Shown: positions 3,681 through 60,643 of the stretch, one piece after another
Layout: the number at the start of each line of letters is the position of its first letter
How positions within the stretch are numbered: the first letter of the stretch is position 1
NCBI GenBank assembly: GCA_963784645.1
Contig: CAWARY010000005.1
Span: 178,656-242,655 of the forward strand
DNA length: 64,000 bases
Direction of reading: 5' to 3'
Origin: an uncultured Actinomycetota bacterium
GTDB taxonomy: Bacteria > Actinomycetota > Actinomycetes > JACCUZ01
Program-made: the position numbers and the translations under genes
The notes under the pieces: model-generated
The model's input: the letters and a program-made list of their open reading frames with translations, nothing else
Databases searched by the model: none
Told to the model about the DNA's origin: nothing

Positions 3681-3698
3681 CGCCAACCCAGATCTTTT

Positions 3699-3745
3699 GT
3701 GCGCCGACACACCGGATCTTCGGCGTGTCCGGTGTGTCAGCGCAC
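3699..3745. terminator. Bidirectional hairpin terminator between convergent genes (17-bp stem GTGCGCCGACACACCGG / CCGGTGTGTCAGCGCAC, 13-nt loop)
   Basis: A near-perfect inverted repeat is seen directly in the sequence. It lies between the DUF2550 stop (3680) and the adenosyltransferase stop (3765). Confidence 0.5.
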
Positions 3746-3764
3746 ATTCCGCGGGCGAGCCGCG

Positions 3765-6876: not shown

Positions 6877-6980
6877 GCCGCCCGCGCCCCTGCCGTGACC
6901 GGCCGGGGTCAGAGCGCTTCGGACAGGGGCCTGCTCGCCTGCCGGGCCGTCCGCCGTCGCCCAGGGGCACCCCGGTTTCC

Positions 6981-7033
6981 ATGATCCACAGGGGATCTGT
7001 TGGATATTTCCCAACGGATCCGCTGTGGATCAT
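6981..7033. repeat. Family-1 palindromic intergenic element, full copy (arms ATGATCCACAGGGGATCTGTTGG / CCAACGGATCCGCTGTGGATCAT, loop ATATTTC)
   Basis: Inverted repeat with 23-bp arms and 2 mismatches. Related copies occur at 44161-44217 and, truncated, at 32644-32688. Confidence 0.6.
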
Positions 7034-7091
7034 GAACTGGCGGGTGCATCAGGAGGGTTCCGGCGCTCTGACCTGGGACGAAGTGGTTCCG

Positions 7092-7138
7092 GTTCACTCG
7101 AGTCACACAAGTCACAGGCGTCACAGCGTGGCGTCAAG
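7092..7138. promoter_or_regulatory. Array of 4-5 (G)TCACA half-sites at about 10-bp phasing, upstream of the STAS gene
   Basis: GTTCAC-N4-GTCACA-N3-GTCACA-N3-GTCACA-N7-GTCAAG, read directly in the 368-bp intergenic region. Confidence 0.3.
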
Positions 7139-7244
7139 AATTCCTCAAGTCCTCGCTCTACCGTCAGGAACCACGAGAACGACGGCAACCTCGCCTCGCT
7201 CTCGCGCGTCTACTGGTACGAGAAGCAGGGTGGGGGTGACCGGG

Positions 7245-12841: not shown

Positions 12842-12920
12842 AGCGACCCAGCCTGCCGTACGCCGCCCGGCCGGGGAAGTCCCGCGCCGTGGAAGCCGCC
12901 CGCGCGTCGCCAGGAAAGAT

Positions 12921-12988
12921 CGTTTGCGACCTGAGCCCCGGACACGCCGGGGTACCCACCGGCGTGTCGGGGATCCAGGTCGCAAACG
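12921..12988. repeat. Family-2 palindromic intergenic element (nested inverted repeats CGTTTGCGACCTG...GACACGCCGG / CCGGCGTGTC...CAGGTCGCAAACG)
   Basis: A 68-bp hairpin-forming element. The second copy is at 60540-60607. Confidence 0.6.
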
Positions 12989-13085
12989 AGCGCCCTCCGG
13001 GTGCGGCACCCCGGGGGAGGCAGGCTGCGGGCCATCTTTGCCAAGAAGTGTTGGCAAAGGAGTGTTGGCATGGCATCCTCGGGGC

Positions 13086-13658: not shown

Positions 13659-14911
13659 GTCCGCTCACCGGCCCGCTCCGGCGTCGCGACGTGCGGTTGC
13701 TGATCACCGGGTCGACGGTGTCCCTGGTCGGCGACGGCATCTACGGCATCGCGATGGCGGTGGCCGTCCTGCACCTCACCGGCAGCGCCACCGCCCTGGC
13801 GGCGATGGCGGTCGTGAACCTCGTGCCGCGGGTGGCCTTCGGGCTGATGGGCGGCGTGCTGGCCGACCGGCTCAGCCGCCGGGCGATCCTCGCGGTATGC
13901 GACCTGGTGCGGCTCGTCGTGGTCGCCGCCCTCGGTGCGCTGCTGCTCGCCGGTGACCCGCCGCTGTGGCTGCTGCTGGTGCTGGTCGCGCCGCTGGGTG
14001 CCGCCTCCGGTGCTGCGAACCCGGCCTTCAGCGCGATCCTGCCGGACCTCGTCGACGAGGAGGAGCTGGTCGCCACCGGCGGCCTGCTCGGCACGGTCAG
14101 TCCGATGGCGCAGATGGTGGTCGGCCCGGCCGTCGGCGGTGTGCTGGCGGCCTGGCACCCGGGGGCGGCGCTGCTCGTCGACGCCGCGACGTTCGCCGTG
14201 TCGGCCTGGTGCGTGCTGCTGCTCCGCCCGCCCGTGCTGCACGCGCCGGGCGAGGGCCCCCGGCCGCTGCCGTGGGCCGACTTCCGGGAGGGACTGGCCT
14301 ACGTCCGGCGCACGCCGTGGCTCGCCGTCAACCTGCTCTCCGGGCTCGTCATCACCTTCACCGTGTCCGGGACCATGCAGATGCTCCCGGTGCTGGTCTC
14401 CCGCGGCTACGGCGCACCGGTCGCGAGCTTCGGCTACCTGATCGCCGCGGGCGGGGTCGCCGCCACCGTCGCAGCGGCCGTCGTCGGCTCCCGGCCGCGC
14501 CCCCGGCGCCCGCTGGCGACGTCGTACGCGACGTACGCCCTGGGCCTGGGCGCCGTCGCCGGCCTGGGCGTCGCGCCGGGGCCGGTGGTCGGCGCGGTGT
14601 TCATGGTGGTGTTCTTCGTCGGTGCGACGGCGGGCAACGTGCTGCAGGACAGCGTCCTGGGCTCCCGGGTGCCCCGGGAGCTGCGCGGCCGGGTCGGGTC
14701 GCTCGACTGGGTCGCGGCGACGGCGGCCGCTCCGCTCTCGGTCGTGGTCGCCGCGCTCTCGGCCGACCATGCCGGCATCCGCCCGACGTACGTCGTGGCC
14801 GGCCTGGCCGCCGCCCTGTGCTCGCTCGCGGGGCTGGTGCTGCTGCGCCGCACCGGCGAGCCGACCGACACCCCGGCCCCGTCCGCCACGGCCCTGCAGT
14901 CGATCACGTAA
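13655..14911 (+). CDS. MFS transporter
   Basis: 418 aa, polytopic. It appears translationally coupled to the ArsR regulator. Confidence 0.85.
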   Translation: MSPLTGPLRRRDVRLLITGSTVSLVGDGIYGIAMAVAVLHLTGSATALAAMAVVNLVPRVAFGLMGGVLADRLSRRAILAVCDLVRLVVVAALGALLLAGDPPLWLLLVLVAPLGAASGAANPAFSAILPDLVDEEELVATGGLLGTVSPMAQMVVGPAVGGVLAAWHPGAALLVDAATFAVSAWCVLLLRPPVLHAPGEGPRPLPWADFREGLAYVRRTPWLAVNLLSGLVITFTVSGTMQMLPVLVSRGYGAPVASFGYLIAAGGVAATVAAAVVGSRPRPRRPLATSYATYALGLGAVAGLGVAPGPVVGAVFMVVFFVGATAGNVLQDSVLGSRVPRELRGRVGSLDWVAATAAAPLSVVVAALSADHAGIRPTYVVAGLAAALCSLAGLVLLRRTGEPTDTPAPSATALQSIT

Positions 14912-14981
14912 ACGTGATCCACCGTCTCCTCACACGGGTTGCACGCCGTGCAAGGCGCATGTCGACCACGTTTACGTGATC
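14902..14981. repeat. Nested dyad-symmetry element: outer arms GATCACGTAAACGTGATCC / ACCACGTTTACGTGATC around an inner palindrome TTGCACGCCGTGCAA
   Basis: Read directly. It overlaps the MFS stop codon and lies between the convergent MFS and nucS genes. Confidence 0.5.
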
Positions 14982-14989
14982 GCCGGACG

Positions 14990-15041: not shown

Positions 15042-15713
15042 TCAGAACAGGCGGGCGCCGACGTCGTCGACACCGCGCAGCGCGTCGTAGTCGAGGACGA
15101 CGCAGTCGATGCCGCGGTCGGTGGCCAGGACCCGGGCCTGCGGCTTGATCTCCTGGGCGGCGAACACGCCGCGTACCGGCATCAGGTGCGGGTCGCGGTT
15201 GAGCAGCTCGAGGTAGCGGGTGAGCTGCTCGACGCCGTCGATCTCGCCGCGCCGCTTGATCTCGATCGCCACGGTCGCCCCGCTGCGGTCGCGAGCCAGG
15301 AGGTCGACCGGACCGATCGCCGTCGGGTACTCGCGGCGCACCAGCCGCCAGCCGGCGCCGAGGGTCTCGATCTGGTCGGCGAGCAGCGCCTGCAGGTGGG
15401 CCTCGACACCGTCCTTCACCAGTCCCGGGTCGACGCCGAGCTGGTGACTGGTGTCGTCCAGGACCTCCTCGACCGTGATGACCAGCTGCTCGCCGCCCTT
15501 GTTCGTGACGGTCCAGACGCCCTCGTCCGGACCGGTGCCGACGCGCAGCGTGCACGGCGGCGTCATCCACATCAGCGGCTTGTAGCCGCCGGCGTCGGAG
15601 TGCACGAGCACCGAGCCGTCGGACTTGACCAGCAGCAGCCGGGGAGCGCTCGGGAGGTGGGCGGTCAGCCGGCCGACGTAGTCGACCGAGCACCGGGCGA
15701 TGACCATCCGCAC
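15042..15713 (-). CDS. nucS: Endonuclease NucS (mismatch-specific endonuclease)
   Basis: 223 aa, [40 protein letters not shown]..., the conserved NucS family. Confidence 0.9.
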
Positions 15714-15724
15714 GAGGGGCGAGG

Positions 15725-16111
15725 CTAGCCGACCGGCGGGGCCGCCTCGTCAGCGGCGAGCATGTCCTCCAGCTCGAGGAGCCGCAGCAGCCGCAGCACG
15801 CTGCGCCGGCAGTGCCGCAGCTCGACGCTCCCGGAGCGCTTGGCGAGCATCGCCCGGGCGAGCAGCAGCGGCGAGATCCCCGAGGCGTCGGCGAAGCCCA
15901 CGCCGCTCATGTCGACCACCAGGCGGGTGCACAGGGGTGCGCGCCGGGCCGCGAGCGCCTGGTCGACGACGGCCTGCAGCAGCGGCGAACTGGTGATGTC
16001 GAGCTCGCCGTCCAGGCGGACGGTCACCGTGGCCCCCTCCGGCCGGACGTCGACGGCAAGCGTCGACTGAGCGCTGCGCAAGCCCCGTGCTCCCTCTCCC
16101 ACGACGGCCAC
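15725..16111 (-). CDS. STAS-domain anti-sigma factor antagonist (start uncertain, GTG)
   Basis: The C-terminal 110 aa, [56 protein letters not shown], are SpoIIAA-like. The upstream ORF extension is GC noise. Confidence 0.55.
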
Positions 16112-32548: not shown

Positions 32549-32643
32549 GACTTCTCCTTGTCGAGCGCCGGTCGCCGCTGGCGCACGCTAGCCGTTGGTC
32601 GCGAGCCAGACGTGGATGTCGCCTCGCCCGTCGCATTTCCAGA

Positions 32644-32688
32644 GGAGATCTGTTGGAGAAACTGCTACCGATCCCCTGTGGATCACGG
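32644..32688. repeat. Family-1 palindromic element, truncated copy (lacks the left TGATCCACAG terminus)
   Basis: GGAGATCTGTTGG-AGAAACTGCTA-CCGATCCCCTGTGGATCACGG. It abuts the 80-bp repeat A. Confidence 0.5.
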
Positions 32689-32700
32689 GATGGACGGTCA

Positions 32701-32780
32701 GGGCGGGATCGCCGGGAAACCGTTGTGGACAAAGGGTTTCCACGGGTACGCGTGTGCGCTAGGCTTCGAACATACGTTCG
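32701..32780. repeat. 80-bp direct repeat, copy A (78/80 identical to copy B at 33461-33540)
   Basis: GGGCGGGATCGCCGGGAAACCGTTGTGGACAAAGGGTTTCCACGGGTACG... Similarity to copy B extends back to 32658 (AACTGCT). Confidence 0.7.
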
Positions 32781-33460: not shown

Positions 33461-33540
33461 GGGCGGGATCGCCGGGAAACCGTTGTGGACAAAGGGTTTC
33501 CACGGGTACGGGTGTGCGCTAGACTTCGAACATACGTTCG
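33461..33540. repeat. 80-bp direct repeat, copy B, forming the leader/promoter region of the DUF222/HNH gene
   Basis: It ends 49 bp upstream of the HNH gene ATG. Confidence 0.7.
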
Positions 33541-33588
33541 AGCGGTCGGAGGTGGGGTGCGTGGAGGCGTCGCTCGCGCCGATGCTCG

Positions 33589-35055
33589 ATGCTGTCGCCG
33601 GACCCTGCCGACCTGCTGGACCCGGTGCTGGCGCCCGATCCGCTGCCCGACGGATGGCTGGACGGGTGCGCCGACCAGGCGCCGGACTTCTTCGTGCCGA
33701 TCGACTCGGTCGCCTGGGACGCGGACGGCGAGGGTGCCGAGGTGGATGGCTGGCCGCCGAGCGACCTGCTGAGCGACCTCGACGACGTGCCTCCGGGTCC
33801 GCTGCTGGCGAGCCTGCTGGCCGCGACCGACCTGGCGGGCTGCTCGGACTCGGACCTGGCGGGTGCGGTGCGTGCCGCGTACCGGTTGCAGTCGTGGGCG
33901 GCGGCGCTGGAGGTCGAGGCGACGAACGTGCTGGTGGACCGGTGCGCGTCCTGGCGCGGGGTGGCGCCTGCCGGGGAGCAGGTGGCGGGGGAGTCGGTGT
34001 CGGCGGAGCTGATGGCCGCGGTCGAGATCGGCTGCGCGCTGGACCTGGCCCCGCAGACCGCCCGCGCCAAGGTGGTGCTGGCCCGGGACCTGGCCCGGCT
34101 GCCCGCGACGCGGCTGGGCCTGGCCGCGGGGGTCCTCGACCTGGCGAAGGCGCGGCTGCTGGTCGACGAGCTGCGGCCCCTGGACGACGAGCTGGCCGCC
34201 GAGGTGGAGGCCCGGATCGTGCCCGGCGCCGCGGGCCGGACCCGGGCGCAGCTGCAGAGCCGGCTGCGGCGGGCGGTGCTCGCGGTCGACCCCGCGGCGG
34301 CGCTGGCCCGGCAGGAGAAAGCCATAGCCGACCGGCGGGTGGAGGTGTTCCCGCTCAGCGACGGGATGGCCGGGCTGACCTACACCGACACCGCGCAGAA
34401 GGTGCACGCCCTGTACCTGTGGCTGACCGGCCGCGCGCACGCCGCGCGAGGCCCGGCCGGGACCGACGACCGTACGATCGACCAGGTCCGGGCTGACGTG
34501 CTCGGTGACCTCGGGGAGCAGGGGCTGGCGTGCGGGGACCTGCCGGTGCGGCACGGGCGGCGCCCGCAGATCCAGGTCGTCGTGGGGGTCGGGACGCTGC
34601 TCGGGCTGGACGAGCTGCCCGGTGAGCTGGTCGGGTACGGGCCGGTCACCGCCGACACCGCCCGTCGGATCGCCGCCGACGGCACGTGGCGGCGGCTGCT
34701 GAGCGACCCGCGGACCGGCCGGTTCGACGAGCTGTCGGTCGAGAGCTACCAGCCCCCGCAGGACCTGGCCGACCACGTGATCACCCGGGACCGGACCTGC
34801 CGCACCCCCGGCTGCCGCACGGCGGCGCACCGCTGCGACCTGGACCACCGGGTGCCGCACCCGCGGGGCCCGACCTCGGCGGGCAACCTCGACGCGGCCT
34901 GCCGCAGCCACCACACCGTGAAGACCCACACCGACACCACCGTCGAGAGCGACGGTCACGGCGGGCTCCGGTTCACCCTGCCCTCCGGACGCACCTACCG
35001 GCGACCCGCCGACCCCGTCCAGGACGACCTGTTCAGCGACATCCCCCCGTACTGA
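33589..35055 (+). CDS. DUF222 plus HNH endonuclease domain protein (13E12-repeat family)
   Basis: 488 aa. The C-terminal HNH motif is ...TCRTPGCRTAAHRCDLDHRVPHPRGPTSAGNLDAACRSHHTVKTH. Confidence 0.85.
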   Translation: MLSPDPADLLDPVLAPDPLPDGWLDGCADQAPDFFVPIDSVAWDADGEGAEVDGWPPSDLLSDLDDVPPGPLLASLLAATDLAGCSDSDLAGAVRAAYRLQSWAAALEVEATNVLVDRCASWRGVAPAGEQVAGESVSAELMAAVEIGCALDLAPQTARAKVVLARDLARLPATRLGLAAGVLDLAKARLLVDELRPLDDELAAEVEARIVPGAAGRTRAQLQSRLRRAVLAVDPAAALARQEKAIADRRVEVFPLSDGMAGLTYTDTAQKVHALYLWLTGRAHAARGPAGTDDRTIDQVRADVLGDLGEQGLACGDLPVRHGRRPQIQVVVGVGTLLGLDELPGELVGYGPVTADTARRIAADGTWRRLLSDPRTGRFDELSVESYQPPQDLADHVITRDRTCRTPGCRTAAHRCDLDHRVPHPRGPTSAGNLDAACRSHHTVKTHTDTTVESDGHGGLRFTLPSGRTYRRPADPVQDDLFSDIPPY

Positions 35056-43160: not shown

Positions 43161-44135
43161 GTGGTCGCGGCGCCGGGGGTCGGCGCGCTGGTCGAGCGTG
43201 CCCGGGAGGGCGACGCCCGGTCCGTCGCGAAGCTCATCTCGTTGGTCGAGGACGCGTCGCCGAGGCTGCGGGAGGCGATGGCGGCCCTGGCGCCGTACGG
43301 CGGCCGCGCGAGCGTCATCGGCCTGACCGGCGCTCCCGGCGTCGGCAAGTCGACGTCCACCAACGCGCTCGTGACGGCGTTCCGGGGGCGCGGCAAGCGG
43401 GTGGGCGTGCTCGCGGTCGACCCCTCGTCGCCGTTCTCGGGCGGGGCACTGCTCGGCGACCGGGTGCGGATGCAGGACCACGCGCTGGACCGCGATGTCT
43501 ACATCCGGTCGATGGCCAGCCGCGGCCACCTCGGCGGTCTCTCGTGGGCCACGCCGCAGGCGCTCCGGGTCCTGGACGCCGCCGGCTGCGACATCGTGCT
43601 CGTCGAGACCGTCGGCGTCGGCCAGTCCGAGGTGGAGGTGGCGCGGACGGCCGACACCACGGTGGTCCTGCTCGCCCCGGGGATGGGCGACGCCATCCAG
43701 GCCGCCAAGGCCGGCATCCTCGAGGTGGGCGACGTCTACGTCGTCAACAAGGCCGACCGCGACGGTGCCGACAACGCCGTGCGCGAGCTGCGCCACATGC
43801 TGACCCTCGGCGAGCGCCGGTCGCCGGGGGAGTGGCGGCCGCCGATCGTCAAGACCGTCGCCTCCCGCGGCGAGGGCCTCGACGAGCTGGTCGAGGCGCT
43901 GGACAAGCACCGCGCCTGGCTGGAGGAGACCGGCACGCTGCACGAGCGCCGCCTGCACCGCGCCGCCGACGAGGTCGAGGCGATCGCGCTGACCGCGCTG
44001 CGCGAACGCGTGGGCGACCTGCGGACGCGCGACGGCGAGGCCAACCTCGACGCTCTCGCCGCCGACGTCGTTGCCGGCCGCACCGACCCCTACGCCGCCG
44101 CGGATGCACTGCTCGCCGGTCTCACCGCCGGTTGA
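43161..44135 (+). CDS. meaB: MeaB/ArgK-family GTPase (B12 mutase chaperone)
   Basis: GTG start with a P-loop GLTGAPGVGKST. Confidence 0.85.
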   Translation: MVAAPGVGALVERAREGDARSVAKLISLVEDASPRLREAMAALAPYGGRASVIGLTGAPGVGKSTSTNALVTAFRGRGKRVGVLAVDPSSPFSGGALLGDRVRMQDHALDRDVYIRSMASRGHLGGLSWATPQALRVLDAAGCDIVLVETVGVGQSEVEVARTADTTVVLLAPGMGDAIQAAKAGILEVGDVYVVNKADRDGADNAVRELRHMLTLGERRSPGEWRPPIVKTVASRGEGLDELVEALDKHRAWLEETGTLHERRLHRAADEVEAIALTALRERVGDLRTRDGEANLDALAADVVAGRTDPYAAADALLAGLTAG

Positions 44136-44160
44136 CGACTCGCGGCCCTGACCCGCCGCC

Positions 44161-44217
44161 CCGTGATCCACAGCGGATCCATGTGGTTTTTCCTCACCAA
44201 TCCGCTGTGGATCACGG
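44161..44217. repeat. Family-1 palindromic intergenic element, full copy
   Basis: CCGTGATCCACAGCGGATCCATGTGG-TTTTTCCTCA-CCAATCCGCTGTGGATCACGG, with 18-bp perfect arms. Confidence 0.6.
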
Positions 44218-44240
44218 AACTGCGGGTGGCCGGGGCCGGC

Positions 44241-45293
44241 TCAGCGCCCGGTGGTCGGGGGCGGGCTGCTCGACGACGTCCCGGCAGGGCTGGAGGTCGA
44301 CGTCGACGGGGTGGGGTCGGTCGGCGTGGGGGTGGTCGTCGTCTCGGCCGGAGTGGGTGCCGGCGTCGTCGTGGGCTCGGCGGTGGTCGCGGGCGCCGTC
44401 GGGCAGGCGAAGGTGACGTCCTGCTCCACCGTGCGCCCGGCCGTCGTCGTGACGTCCGTGGTGCGACCGCGGGCGCCCAGGACGGACGTGCCGACCGGCG
44501 CGCCCGCGATGCGGTAGCGGTCGCCCTCGCCCAGCCCGCTCAGCCTGACCGCGCTGGTGCGCTGGCCGTCGATCCACAGCCACAGCGGGAAACGGGCGTC
44601 CGGGCAGCTGACGTCGGTCCGGACCCGGCCCTGGACGACCGCTCCGGGCACCAGCGTGGTGACACGCGGCTTGGTGCCGCGCGTACAGCTGAGGTCGTCG
44701 ACGAACATGGGGGCCCAGACCCCGACCGCGGCCGGACCGAGGTTGGTGTTGACACGCCATGACGTGACGAGGACCGGGGCACCGGTGCACGGCACCCGGT
44801 AGGCGCCTGTGACGTCCGTCGTGGCCGCCAGCCGGGTCGGGAGGTAGCCCTTCGCGGTCTGCTCCCCGGTCCAGACGTAGAGGCCGGCCACCGGGGCACC
44901 GGACGGGTCGACGACGCGGCCACGGACGAACGTGGGCGCCACCCGCTCCGGAGGCGCGGTGACCGCGCTGCTCGTCACGGGCGCGGCGGTCTTGCGGCCT
45001 GCGGTCGACGGGACCACCGAAGCCTGCCGGGTCTCCGGTGCGGCGGTCGACGTGCTCACGGACGGTGAGGGCGAGCCGCCGCGGGCGACGTTGACGATCG
45101 TGTTGCGTACGCCGCTCACGCCGCCGCCCAGCGCGAGGCCGCCGAAGATGCCGGAGAGGAAGACACCGGTGACACCGCAGACAGCGGCCGCCCGGTGGAA
45201 CCGACGGAACGTGGCCTCGCGGTACACGCGGCCGAAGCCGTCGGGCGGCGGGGGCAGCGGCTCGATCGGGCGACGGGGCAGGTGCCCCGTCAT
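44241..45293 (-). CDS. Membrane-spanning anti-sigma factor-like protein with an extracytoplasmic domain and a Thr/Pro-rich tail
   Basis: 350 aa from the ATG, which overlaps the sigma-factor stop (ATGA). One TM helix after a cytoplasmic N-terminus. Confidence 0.55.
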   Translation of the reverse strand: MTGHLPRRPIEPLPPPPDGFGRVYREATFRRFHRAAAVCGVTGVFLSGIFGGLALGGGVSGVRNTIVNVARGGSPSPSVSTSTAAPETRQASVVPSTAGRKTAAPVTSSAVTAPPERVAPTFVRGRVVDPSGAPVAGLYVWTGEQTAKGYLPTRLAATTDVTGAYRVPCTGAPVLVTSWRVNTNLGPAAVGVWAPMFVDDLSCTRGTKPRVTTLVPGAVVQGRVRTDVSCPDARFPLWLWIDGQRTSAVRLSGLGEGDRYRIAGAPVGTSVLGARGRTTDVTTTAGRTVEQDVTFACPTAPATTAEPTTTPAPTPAETTTTPTPTDPTPSTSTSSPAGTSSSSPPPTTGR

Positions 45294-47756: not shown

Positions 47757-47811
47757 GAGTGGCGCGTTGTGGTGGTTCTGTACCGGTAAGAAGTGCCACA
47801 ACGCGCCACTC
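47757..47811. terminator. Perfect 16-bp stem hairpin (GAGTGGCGCGTTGTGG / CCACAACGCGCCACTC) with a 23-nt AT-richer loop, 8 nt after the mutase stop
   Basis: Read directly. Confidence 0.55.
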
Positions 47812-60526: not shown

Positions 60527-60539
60527 CCCCACACCATCT

Positions 60540-60607
60540 CGTTTGCGACCTCACTCCCCGACACGCCGGGATGGCCGCCGGCGTGTCCGTGAGCCAGGTC
60601 GCAAACG
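60540..60607. repeat. Family-2 palindromic intergenic element, second copy
   Basis: CGTTTGCGACCTCACTCCCCGACACGCCGGG-ATGGCCG-CCGGCGTGTCCGTGAGCCAGGTCGCAAACG, lying between the glgP and glgX stops. Confidence 0.6.
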
Positions 60608-60643
60608 AGCGAGAGGGGTGGGCGGGCGGTGGGCCGCCGGACG

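Follow-up and report, generated by a model that had tools for sequence, protein, structure and literature searches.

A dispersed palindromic repeat of uncultured Actinomycetes and its positional link to a Vsr-like nuclease gene

Our comparative analysis shows that family 1, an intergenic repeat present in three copies in a 64-kb stretch of DNA (the whole stretch analysed, hereafter the window), is a conserved, covarying palindrome with a 51-bp core. Its copies have been gained, lost, extended and decayed over evolutionary time, and the survivors are found almost only just downstream of genes. Moreover, a vertically inherited, syntenic nuclease gene is linked to two copies of the dispersed palindrome type of its lineage; this is a positional association only, without any data on binding, cleavage or transposition. 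As an explanation of the whole, we favour by a modest margin a REPIN-like system with a winged-helix/Vsr-like nuclease as its partner, in which the link to the nuclease is positional only and the mechanism is inferred.

Results

Three copies of the palindrome in the window

A covariance model built from 41 family copies and run over the window gave exactly three matches, at 6968-7046 (78 bits), 44150-44228 (72 bits) and 32622-32699 (36 bits), and the best score after these was 14 bits. Copy 1 lies 90 nt past the stop codon (6876) of a 3-hydroxyacyl-CoA dehydrogenase gene (hbd) and has a STAS gene on its other side. Copy 3 lies between the gene for MeaB (stop at 44135) and a convergent gene that ends at 44241 and adjoins a sigma-70 gene, and copy 2 has a DinB_2 gene on one side and a tautomerase remnant on the other (all by Pfam or homology). 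Read directly, the core of copy 1 is TGATCCACAGGGGATCTGTTGG-ATATTTC-CCAACGGATCCGCTGTGGATCA and that of copy 3 is TGATCCACAGCGGATCCATGTGGTTTTTCCTCACCAATCCGCTGTGGATCA; both have the form TGATCCACAG-N31-CTGTGGATCA, that is, a 10-mer, 31 nt and the complementary 10-mer, which makes 51 bp exactly. Copy 1 has 22-nt arms with 2 mismatches, and both arms match the 16-nt arm TGATCCACAGSGGATC exactly. In copy 3 the arms are perfect over 16 nt, with 0 and 1 mismatch to TGATCCACAGSGGATC, around an imperfect interior of the CATGTGG-TTTTCT subfamily, which is common to loci L007 and L028. Pairing reaches the limits of the long form in either copy (Table 1). With 0-1 mismatch allowed, the arm TGATCCACAGSGGATC occurs 5 times in the window; with up to 3 allowed it occurs 6 times, where 0.87 would be expected, and 6 was not reached in any of 100 shuffles.

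Table 1. Coordinates of the family-1 copies in the window
Feature	Position	Strand	Description
Copy 1, long form	6967..7047	.	Inverted repeat; ~80-nt hairpin with outer stem GCACCCCGGTTTCCA / TGAACTGGCGGGTGC flanking the 51-bp core
Copy 1, core (51 bp)	6982..7032	.	Arm 6982-6997; inner stem and loop 6998-7016; arm 7017-7032
Copy 3, long form	44151..44227	.	Inverted repeat; occupies most of the 105-nt gap between meaB and the convergent gene; lineage-specific insertion
Copy 3, core (51 bp)	44164..44214	.	Arms 44164-44179 and 44199-44214
Copy 2, full length, decayed	32635..32685	.	Left arm 32635-32650 (10/16 positions kept); right arm 32670-32685 intact

As RNA, copies 1 and 3 fold on either strand into ~80-nt hairpins of -52 to -64 kcal/mol (z -6.6 to -10.4), with -58.5 kcal/mol (z -9.2) for copy 1 and -52.4 / -63.6 kcal/mol for copy 3; as DNA, both fold at about -32 kcal/mol. 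Copy 2 no longer has a stable fold (z about -1). An earlier sequence-only reading had claimed three palindromic copies in 64 kb, all of them intergenic and between the neighbours given above, and these claims held. Its arms of 18-23 bp for copies 1 and 3 held in part: the palindrome is real, but the hairpins are longer. Its description of copy 2 as a truncated element at 32644-32688 without a left terminus failed, because the 36-bit match spans the entire model, which makes this copy full length with a decayed left arm.

The genome of the window is rich in long hairpins without a U-tract. A second family of long palindromes, TCGTTTGCGACCT...AGGTCGCAAACGA, occurs at 12920-12989 and 60538-60609; both copies are intergenic with 31-32-nt arms and an 8-nt loop, and one lies between convergent genes after a glucan phosphorylase gene. 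Single long intergenic hairpins are also present at 3698-3746, 47757-47811 and 14901-14982, the last of which has 37-nt arms, contains GTGATCCACC and adjoins a gene at 15042-15749. An 80-nt direct repeat (32701-32780 and 33461-33540, 98% identical) carries TTGTGGACAA and the SOS-box-like TCGAACATACGTTCG; one copy is just upstream of a DUF222 gene (33523-35055), the other lies 15 nt past the right end of decayed copy 2, with the tautomerase remnant between the two. Upstream of the STAS gene, positions 7100-7215 are almost 100% identical to the closest relative, above the conservation of the flanking genes, and contain three GTCACA direct repeats (GAGTCACACAAGTCACAGGCGTCACAGCG); the block resembles either a response-regulator site or a 5' leader that has been conserved.

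Family 1 in related genomes

Scanning 185,579 species genomes with the pattern TGATCCACAG-N25-40-CTGTGGATCA returned 58 stretches, and the 51-bp matches that also bear the GGATC/GATCC blocks are concentrated in the MAGs named below. The genome of the window itself is outside the scanned collection, and the copy number per genome (tens) is an estimate only. About 41 further copies with the 51-bp core were found in nine uncultured Actinomycetes MAGs, all of them extragenic (JBBRVW01, CAVVAH01, DATBDW01, DASYEF01, CAVSCX01, CAVYTH01, CAWJWE01 and CAVVAY01, plus CAVRTI01 with a 48-bp variant). The closest relative of the window is the syntenic locus L021 of CAVVAH01, at ~87% identity. Judged by MeaB homologs, the group belongs with soil Actinomycetes (80% identity to a Sporichthyaceae MAG), and the carriers of family 1 form a clade of uncultured Actinomycetes whose nearest named relatives by MeaB are Sporichthyaceae-like.

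The unit consists of two inverted 16-nt arms (TGATCCACAG-S-GGATC) with exactly 19 nt between them, and its variable interior is a mostly paired inner stem with an A/T-rich loop. Like copies 1 and 3, many members extend by an outer stem, ...CCGCCGTTTCCA / TGGAAACGGCGG..., to ~80 nt; many have a third arm, which is always exactly 22 nt from the neighbouring arm. The GGATC/GATCC blocks (core positions 12-16 and 36-40) were free in the search pattern, yet each of their positions is conserved at 93% or more in the 41 copies. The S position pairs across the arms as C-G in 19 copies, G-C in 6 and U-A in 5. Over the 23 core pairs, 89.2% of cells are paired versus 87.3 +/- 0.6% after shuffling, and the covariation score is 0.130 versus 0.098; neither observed value was reached in any of 500 shuffles. 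Controls slid out of register by 1-3 columns were merely 27-45% paired.

No known family accounts for the element in the databases searched. Rfam gave 0 matches at the gathering threshold over the whole window, and copy 1, searched at E up to 10, matched nothing but generic hairpins (miRNA precursors), far below threshold. The 75-nt consensus had no BLAST match in plasmids or phages, and a scan of viral contigs contained no family member, only two AT-rich chance matches without GGATC blocks. Matches in other phyla (Bacteroidota, Chloroflexota, Acidobacteriota and others) mostly had other lengths, with a few at 51 bp, and lacked the blocks; we regard them as chance matches, given that long palindromes abound and a given pair of 10-mers will recur among them. 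Matches in Pseudonocardiales and Streptomyces were also set aside, having only the 10-nt termini in common with family 1. Two of these, in a Pseudonocardiales MAG (L001 227-278) and in Streptomyces sp. NBC_00984 (L053 4907-4962), are perfect 52-56-bp palindromes with TGATCCACAG termini and unrelated interiors, without a homolog of the nuclease in the stretch examined, and could be either chance or distant relatives.

Gain, loss and decay of copies

Copy 3 is a lineage-specific insertion. The meaB junction is empty at five loci (L059-L063) from four relatives with MeaB 82-90% identical, where the meaB stop is 0-16 nt from the convergent gene or overlaps it, versus 105 nt in the window; one of these relatives, DATBDW01, carries family 1 elsewhere in its genome. 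Copy 1 is old, since L021 has a copy at the same place. At this locus L021 also has a second copy, a CACAC/GTGTG variant, which is missing from the window. Further differences are seen at orthologous loci, with two copies in L048 versus one in L002 and one more arm in L011 than in L029. Copies at unrelated loci of the same genome reach 94-97% identity in the unconstrained interior, and mean interior identity is 0.75 within genomes versus 0.68 between genomes. The nearest relative of copy 2, in L024, is in an unrelated gene context, and copies 2 and 3 are each most like copies at non-syntenic CAVVAH01 loci. Taken together, the empty sites, the extra copies and arms, the near-identical interiors and the non-syntenic nearest relatives show that the repeat is spread or homogenised as a unit, with decay afterwards.

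Such turnover could also be expected of MITEs, that is, deletion derivatives of an insertion sequence with TIRs starting in TGATCCACAG and moved by a DDE transposase. The termini do resemble inverted repeats, and insertion polymorphism is present. However, the unit is from end to end a single hairpin of just 51-85 bp, neither the copy 3 insertion nor the aligned flanks show a target-site duplication, and no longer element with the same ends was found in the sequence examined, nor any parent in plasmids, phages or viral contigs. We consider this alternative very unlikely.

Copies lie past the 3' ends of unrelated genes

With flanking genes called by codon-position GC, none of the 41 family-1 copies lies in a gene and none between divergent genes, while 11 are between convergent genes. 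Most are 0-70 nt past a stop codon, the majority within 40 nt, and at 9 gene ends among the 41 copies the terminal TGA of the element (TCA on the opposite strand) is itself the stop codon of the neighbour. Stops supplied by the element occur at L007, L012, L016, L028, L029, L030, L034 and L038. A sister family, here called GTGAG type, shows the same preference: 2/110 elements are between divergent genes, the median distance from the stop is 16.5 nt, and the terminal TGA is the stop in 20/116 gene ends. The host genes of the 3'-end sites are unrelated, e.g. hbd, meaB, an amidase and a hydrolase.

A U-tract does not follow the hairpins; the sequence past them is CGG/TGG A-rich or G-rich with no T-rich run, and a terminator scan was empty at copy 1. 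On the transcribed strand, G-U and A-C mismatches are balanced (17 versus 14, no bias), and the A/T-rich loop is found in both orientations, independent of the direction of transcription; there is therefore no sign of selection on one RNA strand.

Three simple candidates were rejected. The sites are not at promoters of one functional class, as a single-regulon transcription-factor operator would be; a canonical intrinsic terminator would have a U-tract directly after its GC-rich hairpin; and integron attC sites were dropped because the copies are scattered singly, without cassette arrays.

A broader alternative at the RNA level is that the elements are bidirectional terminators or hairpins that protect 3' ends in the manner of the mycobacterial TRIT elements, that the nuclease gene described below merely needs insulation on both sides, and that the spread is a by-product of an unknown process. 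This is supported by the very stable hairpins on both strands, by the position of copies tightly past stops and between convergent genes, and by the match in placement to TRIT, with 147 palindromic copies near stop codons in M. tuberculosis (PMC3152330). Against it stand the missing U-tract, the lack of a G-U excess over A-C and a loop orientation untied to transcription. Mycobacterial RNA polymerase did not terminate in vitro at U-less hairpins (PMC3993855). Moreover, a hairpin needs neither a strict 16-nt arm sequence nor a fixed length of 51 bp, and the linkage to the nuclease would remain unexplained. We therefore regard a purely RNA-level role as unlikely.

A syntenic nuclease gene is bracketed by two copies

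Among the loci of the first scan, only L034 and L038 have two copies a gene length (~1 kb) apart, and the same ~300-aa gene lies between them in both. The gene is single-copy and syntenic, with a product of ~295 aa, and the order bpa - element - gene - element - HAD hydrolase is kept across CACAG, CACAC and GTGAG lineages. Three further loci were fetched via the protein alone, blind to the DNA. In L064 (60% protein identity) the gene lies between two 56-nt copies of the CACAC variant that are 89% alike; in L065 (55% identity), between two 85-nt copies, 82% alike, of a different palindrome, TGATCGTGAGGGGATC..., of GTGAG type; and in L066 (Blastococcus sp., 42% identity), between two 46-nt copies, 87% alike, of yet another palindrome (Blastococcus type). 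The start-to-start spacing of the flanking elements in these three loci is always 995-1042 nt. In most lineages the stop codon of the nuclease gene is the TGA that opens the downstream element, and the two flanking copies appear to form a direct repeat, both bearing the third arm on the same side. In DATBDW01 the C-terminal residues DPQRIGA of the nuclease are encoded by the third arm.

The GTGAG-type sister family, whose termini are TGATCGTGAGG / CCTCACGATCA, has many copies in soil metagenomes. A scan of JGI soil metagenomes (L074-L193) gave at least 120 loci in 74 unrelated flank contexts, one of which is the nuclease locus, and 110 of the 123 elements are exactly 51 bp. All three metagenome contigs with two such elements ~1 kb apart have the nuclease gene between them; together with L034 and L038, the gene between two elements a gene length apart is the nuclease in 5/5 cases.

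The link is also supported by the complete 5.2-Mb genome of Acidothermaceae bacterium B102, whose single TGATCCACAG palindrome lies 72 nt upstream of a 29%-identical homolog. The pairing has limits. At the nuclease gene of L140 only the upstream copy is present. Distant homologs (30-39% identity) have a single unrelated hairpin near the gene and no matched pair, so that the pairing of gene and element may be restricted to part of the protein family. A profile search over ~1 Mb of locus sequence found elsewhere only one paralog and one weak match, neither beside an element. The same search detected no nuclease in the window, which does not contain the bpa-HAD locus.

The protein combines an AbiEi-like winged-helix N-terminus with a Vsr-like nuclease C-terminus. 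Its Pfam matches, to REase_MTES_1575 and DUF559, are sub-threshold, NCBIfam has no model for it, and a sequence search of the PDB detected no solved relative. Residues E196, D227, E238, D240 and H245 are invariant in 30 homologs, and in a structure model with a pLDDT of 92.5 the nuclease domain is closest in appearance to the catalytic domain of a homing endonuclease. Antitoxins of the AbiEi family are reported to bind inverted repeats at the promoters of their own genes (PMC7319586), and the bracketed locus has the layout of an AbiEi-type autoregulatory operator, with inverted repeats just upstream of a gene encoding an AbiEi-like winged-helix fold. In the literature searched that mentions DUF559 or MTES_1575, no title or abstract concerned such repeats.

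Irrespective of palindrome type, each syntenic nuclease gene is preceded at ~45 nt by a motif, CTGTGGA(T/C)(G/A)A (L064 1452-1461, L065 ~1434-1445, L066 1452-1461, L038 2394-2401, L005 6838-6847), which differs by one base from the arm end CTGTGGATCA of family 1. In L005 it has the opposite orientation and reads TTGTCCACAG, which we take to resemble an actinobacterial DnaA box.

The elements could also be static binding sites without mobility of their own, e.g. of a regulon, of chromosome organisation, of a DnaA-box-like kind or of the AbiEi-like protein acting purely as a regulator. The fixed arm sequence and spacings (inverted arms 19 nt apart, third arm 22 nt from its neighbour) would fit this, as would the presence in the arm of TGATCCACA, which we take to be one base off the E. 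coli DnaA box, and the related CTGTGGAYNA motif upstream of the nuclease gene. However, the copies are at 3' ends and not at promoters, their insertions, decay and near-identity at unrelated loci indicate spread as units, and covariation between arms is unexpected for independent protein sites. We give this possibility very little weight.

Finally, the elements could be canonical REPINs moved by a RAYT (a Y1 HUH transposase) encoded elsewhere in the genomes, which would make the link to the nuclease coincidental or secondary. Their build is like that of REPINs, in that two inverted units are kept at fixed spacing, decayed singlets and clusters occur, the sites are extragenic at 3' ends and the arms covary, and a hidden RAYT remains possible as whole genomes were not covered by the search. 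On the other hand, a GTAG or CGTC tag is absent from the consensus and its flanks, and the gene found between the elements does not encode a Y1 transposase. The HUH...Y...NP motif of Y1 transposases was not found in the window or in ~1 Mb of locus sequence, although a crude regular expression that did not cover whole genomes is a weak test. This alternative appears unlikely to us.

Discussion

The sequence-only reading had favoured a mobile or recombinogenic repeat of a REP/MITE-like kind over a single operator. This is supported in its REP/REPIN-like part, and the non-operator reading draws support from both the empty sites of copy 3 and the conservation of copy 1. The MITE label does not fit, because no target-site duplication is visible, no parent insertion sequence occurs in the sequence examined, and the whole unit is one hairpin. 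Two outcomes would have refuted the proposal, namely a lack of further copies or a restriction to one promoter class. Neither was met: many copies exist in related genomes in unrelated gene contexts, and they lie past gene 3' ends and never between divergent genes. Empty sites in relatives, which it had asked for, were found for copy 3 (L059-L063), and relatives have extra copies or an extra arm at other loci. The partner that it suggested, a RAYT/TnpB-like gene, was not found in the sequence examined (~1 Mb, crude motif); a Vsr-like nuclease gene is bracketed instead.

Family 1 works like the REP/REPIN-RAYT systems of Pseudomonas and Enterobacteria (PMC3116915, PMC3337134, preprint 10.1101/2022.05.22.493013), yet is outside that family as defined, since it is untagged and the gene between its copies encodes something other than a Y1 transposase. 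In common with these systems, it has two short inverted units at a fixed distance that form a long hairpin, decayed singlets, multi-unit arrays and covarying arms; it is extragenic and downstream of genes with tens of copies per genome (for family 1, an estimated figure); its partner gene is single-copy, vertically inherited and repeat-flanked; and the sequence of the repeat varies by lineage while the architecture is kept. It differs in lacking the conserved unpaired GTAG/CGTC tag (PMC3733652), its termini being TGATCCACAG / CTGTGGATCA; in its host phylum, Actinomycetota; in its flanked gene, which encodes an AbiEi-like winged helix with a Vsr-like PD-(D/E)xK nuclease instead of a Y1 HUH transposase; and in flanking copies that look direct, not inverted, with a core of strictly 51 bp. 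A survey of tagged REPs covered 8 phyla and never mentioned Actinobacteria (PMC3733652).

Other known elements share single features with family 1. TRIT of Mycobacterium (PMC3152330) is likewise an actinobacterial conserved palindrome, with ~150 copies that hug stop codons, are mostly bidirectional and have no canonical U-tract, and a bound factor is suspected; the family-1 motif is similarly at or overlapping stops (9 stops from the terminal TGA). In contrast, TRIT was reported as restricted to Mycobacterium (PMC3152330), no partner gene has been reported for it, and it is not among the Rfam families. The untagged REP-like stem-loops of M. tuberculosis, Deinococcus, Bordetella, Brucella and cyanobacteria (PMC3733652) are also extragenic palindromes without terminal tags or a known transposase, whereas family 1 has a candidate partner protein through the conserved linkage of gene and repeat. 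Unlike AbiEi antitoxins with their promoter repeats (PMC7319586; PDB 6y8q, 1zel), the bracketed protein has a C-terminal nuclease, its locus has no gene for an AbiEii toxin partner, and the "operator" is also dispersed over the chromosome. Unlike the Vsr-like homing endonuclease I-Bth0305I (PDB 3r3p) and DUF559 proteins (3hrl), the bracketed gene is in no intron or intein, and its position at one syntenic locus gives no sign that it is itself homing.

In the mechanism that we propose for the REPIN-like system, the nuclease protein would bind the arms through its winged-helix module, by analogy with AbiEi proteins at promoter inverted repeats. Nuclease activity at or near the hairpin or cruciform might then seed the copying of the element to new sites, or homogenise copies via break repair, and the nuclease would thus play for family 1 the part that RAYT plays for REPINs. 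Copies would persist at 3' ends, where a strong hairpin is harmless or useful, and may protect mRNA 3' ends or hinder read-through. Several points weigh against this explanation. Binding, cleavage and transposition are all undemonstrated, and the link to the nuclease is one of position only. The flanking copies look direct, not inverted; RAYT genes usually carry inverted flanking REPs. To our knowledge, there is no route by which a PD-(D/E)xK nuclease could copy a 51-bp hairpin to a new site. A RAYT elsewhere in the genomes is not excluded, as only ~1 Mb was scanned and with a crude motif only.

A bolder reading, which we put forward tentatively and would at present rather doubt than accept, is that several Actinomycetes lineages have a second REPIN-like system, in which the bracketed nuclease would take the place of RAYT: it would bind, maintain and spread the dispersed hairpins with their 51-bp core, and repeat and protein would co-diversify. 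The repeat types known so far under this reading would be CACAG, CACAC, GTGAG and the Blastococcus type.

REP/REPIN elements are among the commonest non-coding repeats of bacteria. They are not known to have a partner enzyme other than RAYT, and for whole classes of untagged palindromic repeats, mycobacterial TRIT included, no origin or binding factor is known to us. The repeat by itself would be of a REP-like kind that is already known; what is new here is the conserved nuclease partner. With family 1, a candidate partner from a different enzyme class becomes available for testing, in a phylum for which none has been described, and Blastococcus sp. SYSU D00813 and Acidothermaceae bacterium B102 provide cultured or complete-genome entry points. 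If the nuclease should prove not to act on the hairpins, family 1 would still be a clean new example of a 3'-end hairpin repeat, useful for the annotation of gene ends in actinomycete MAGs. If it does bind or cut them, this would explain the origin of such repeats in high-GC Gram-positive bacteria, and the protein may represent a sequence- and structure-specific nuclease.
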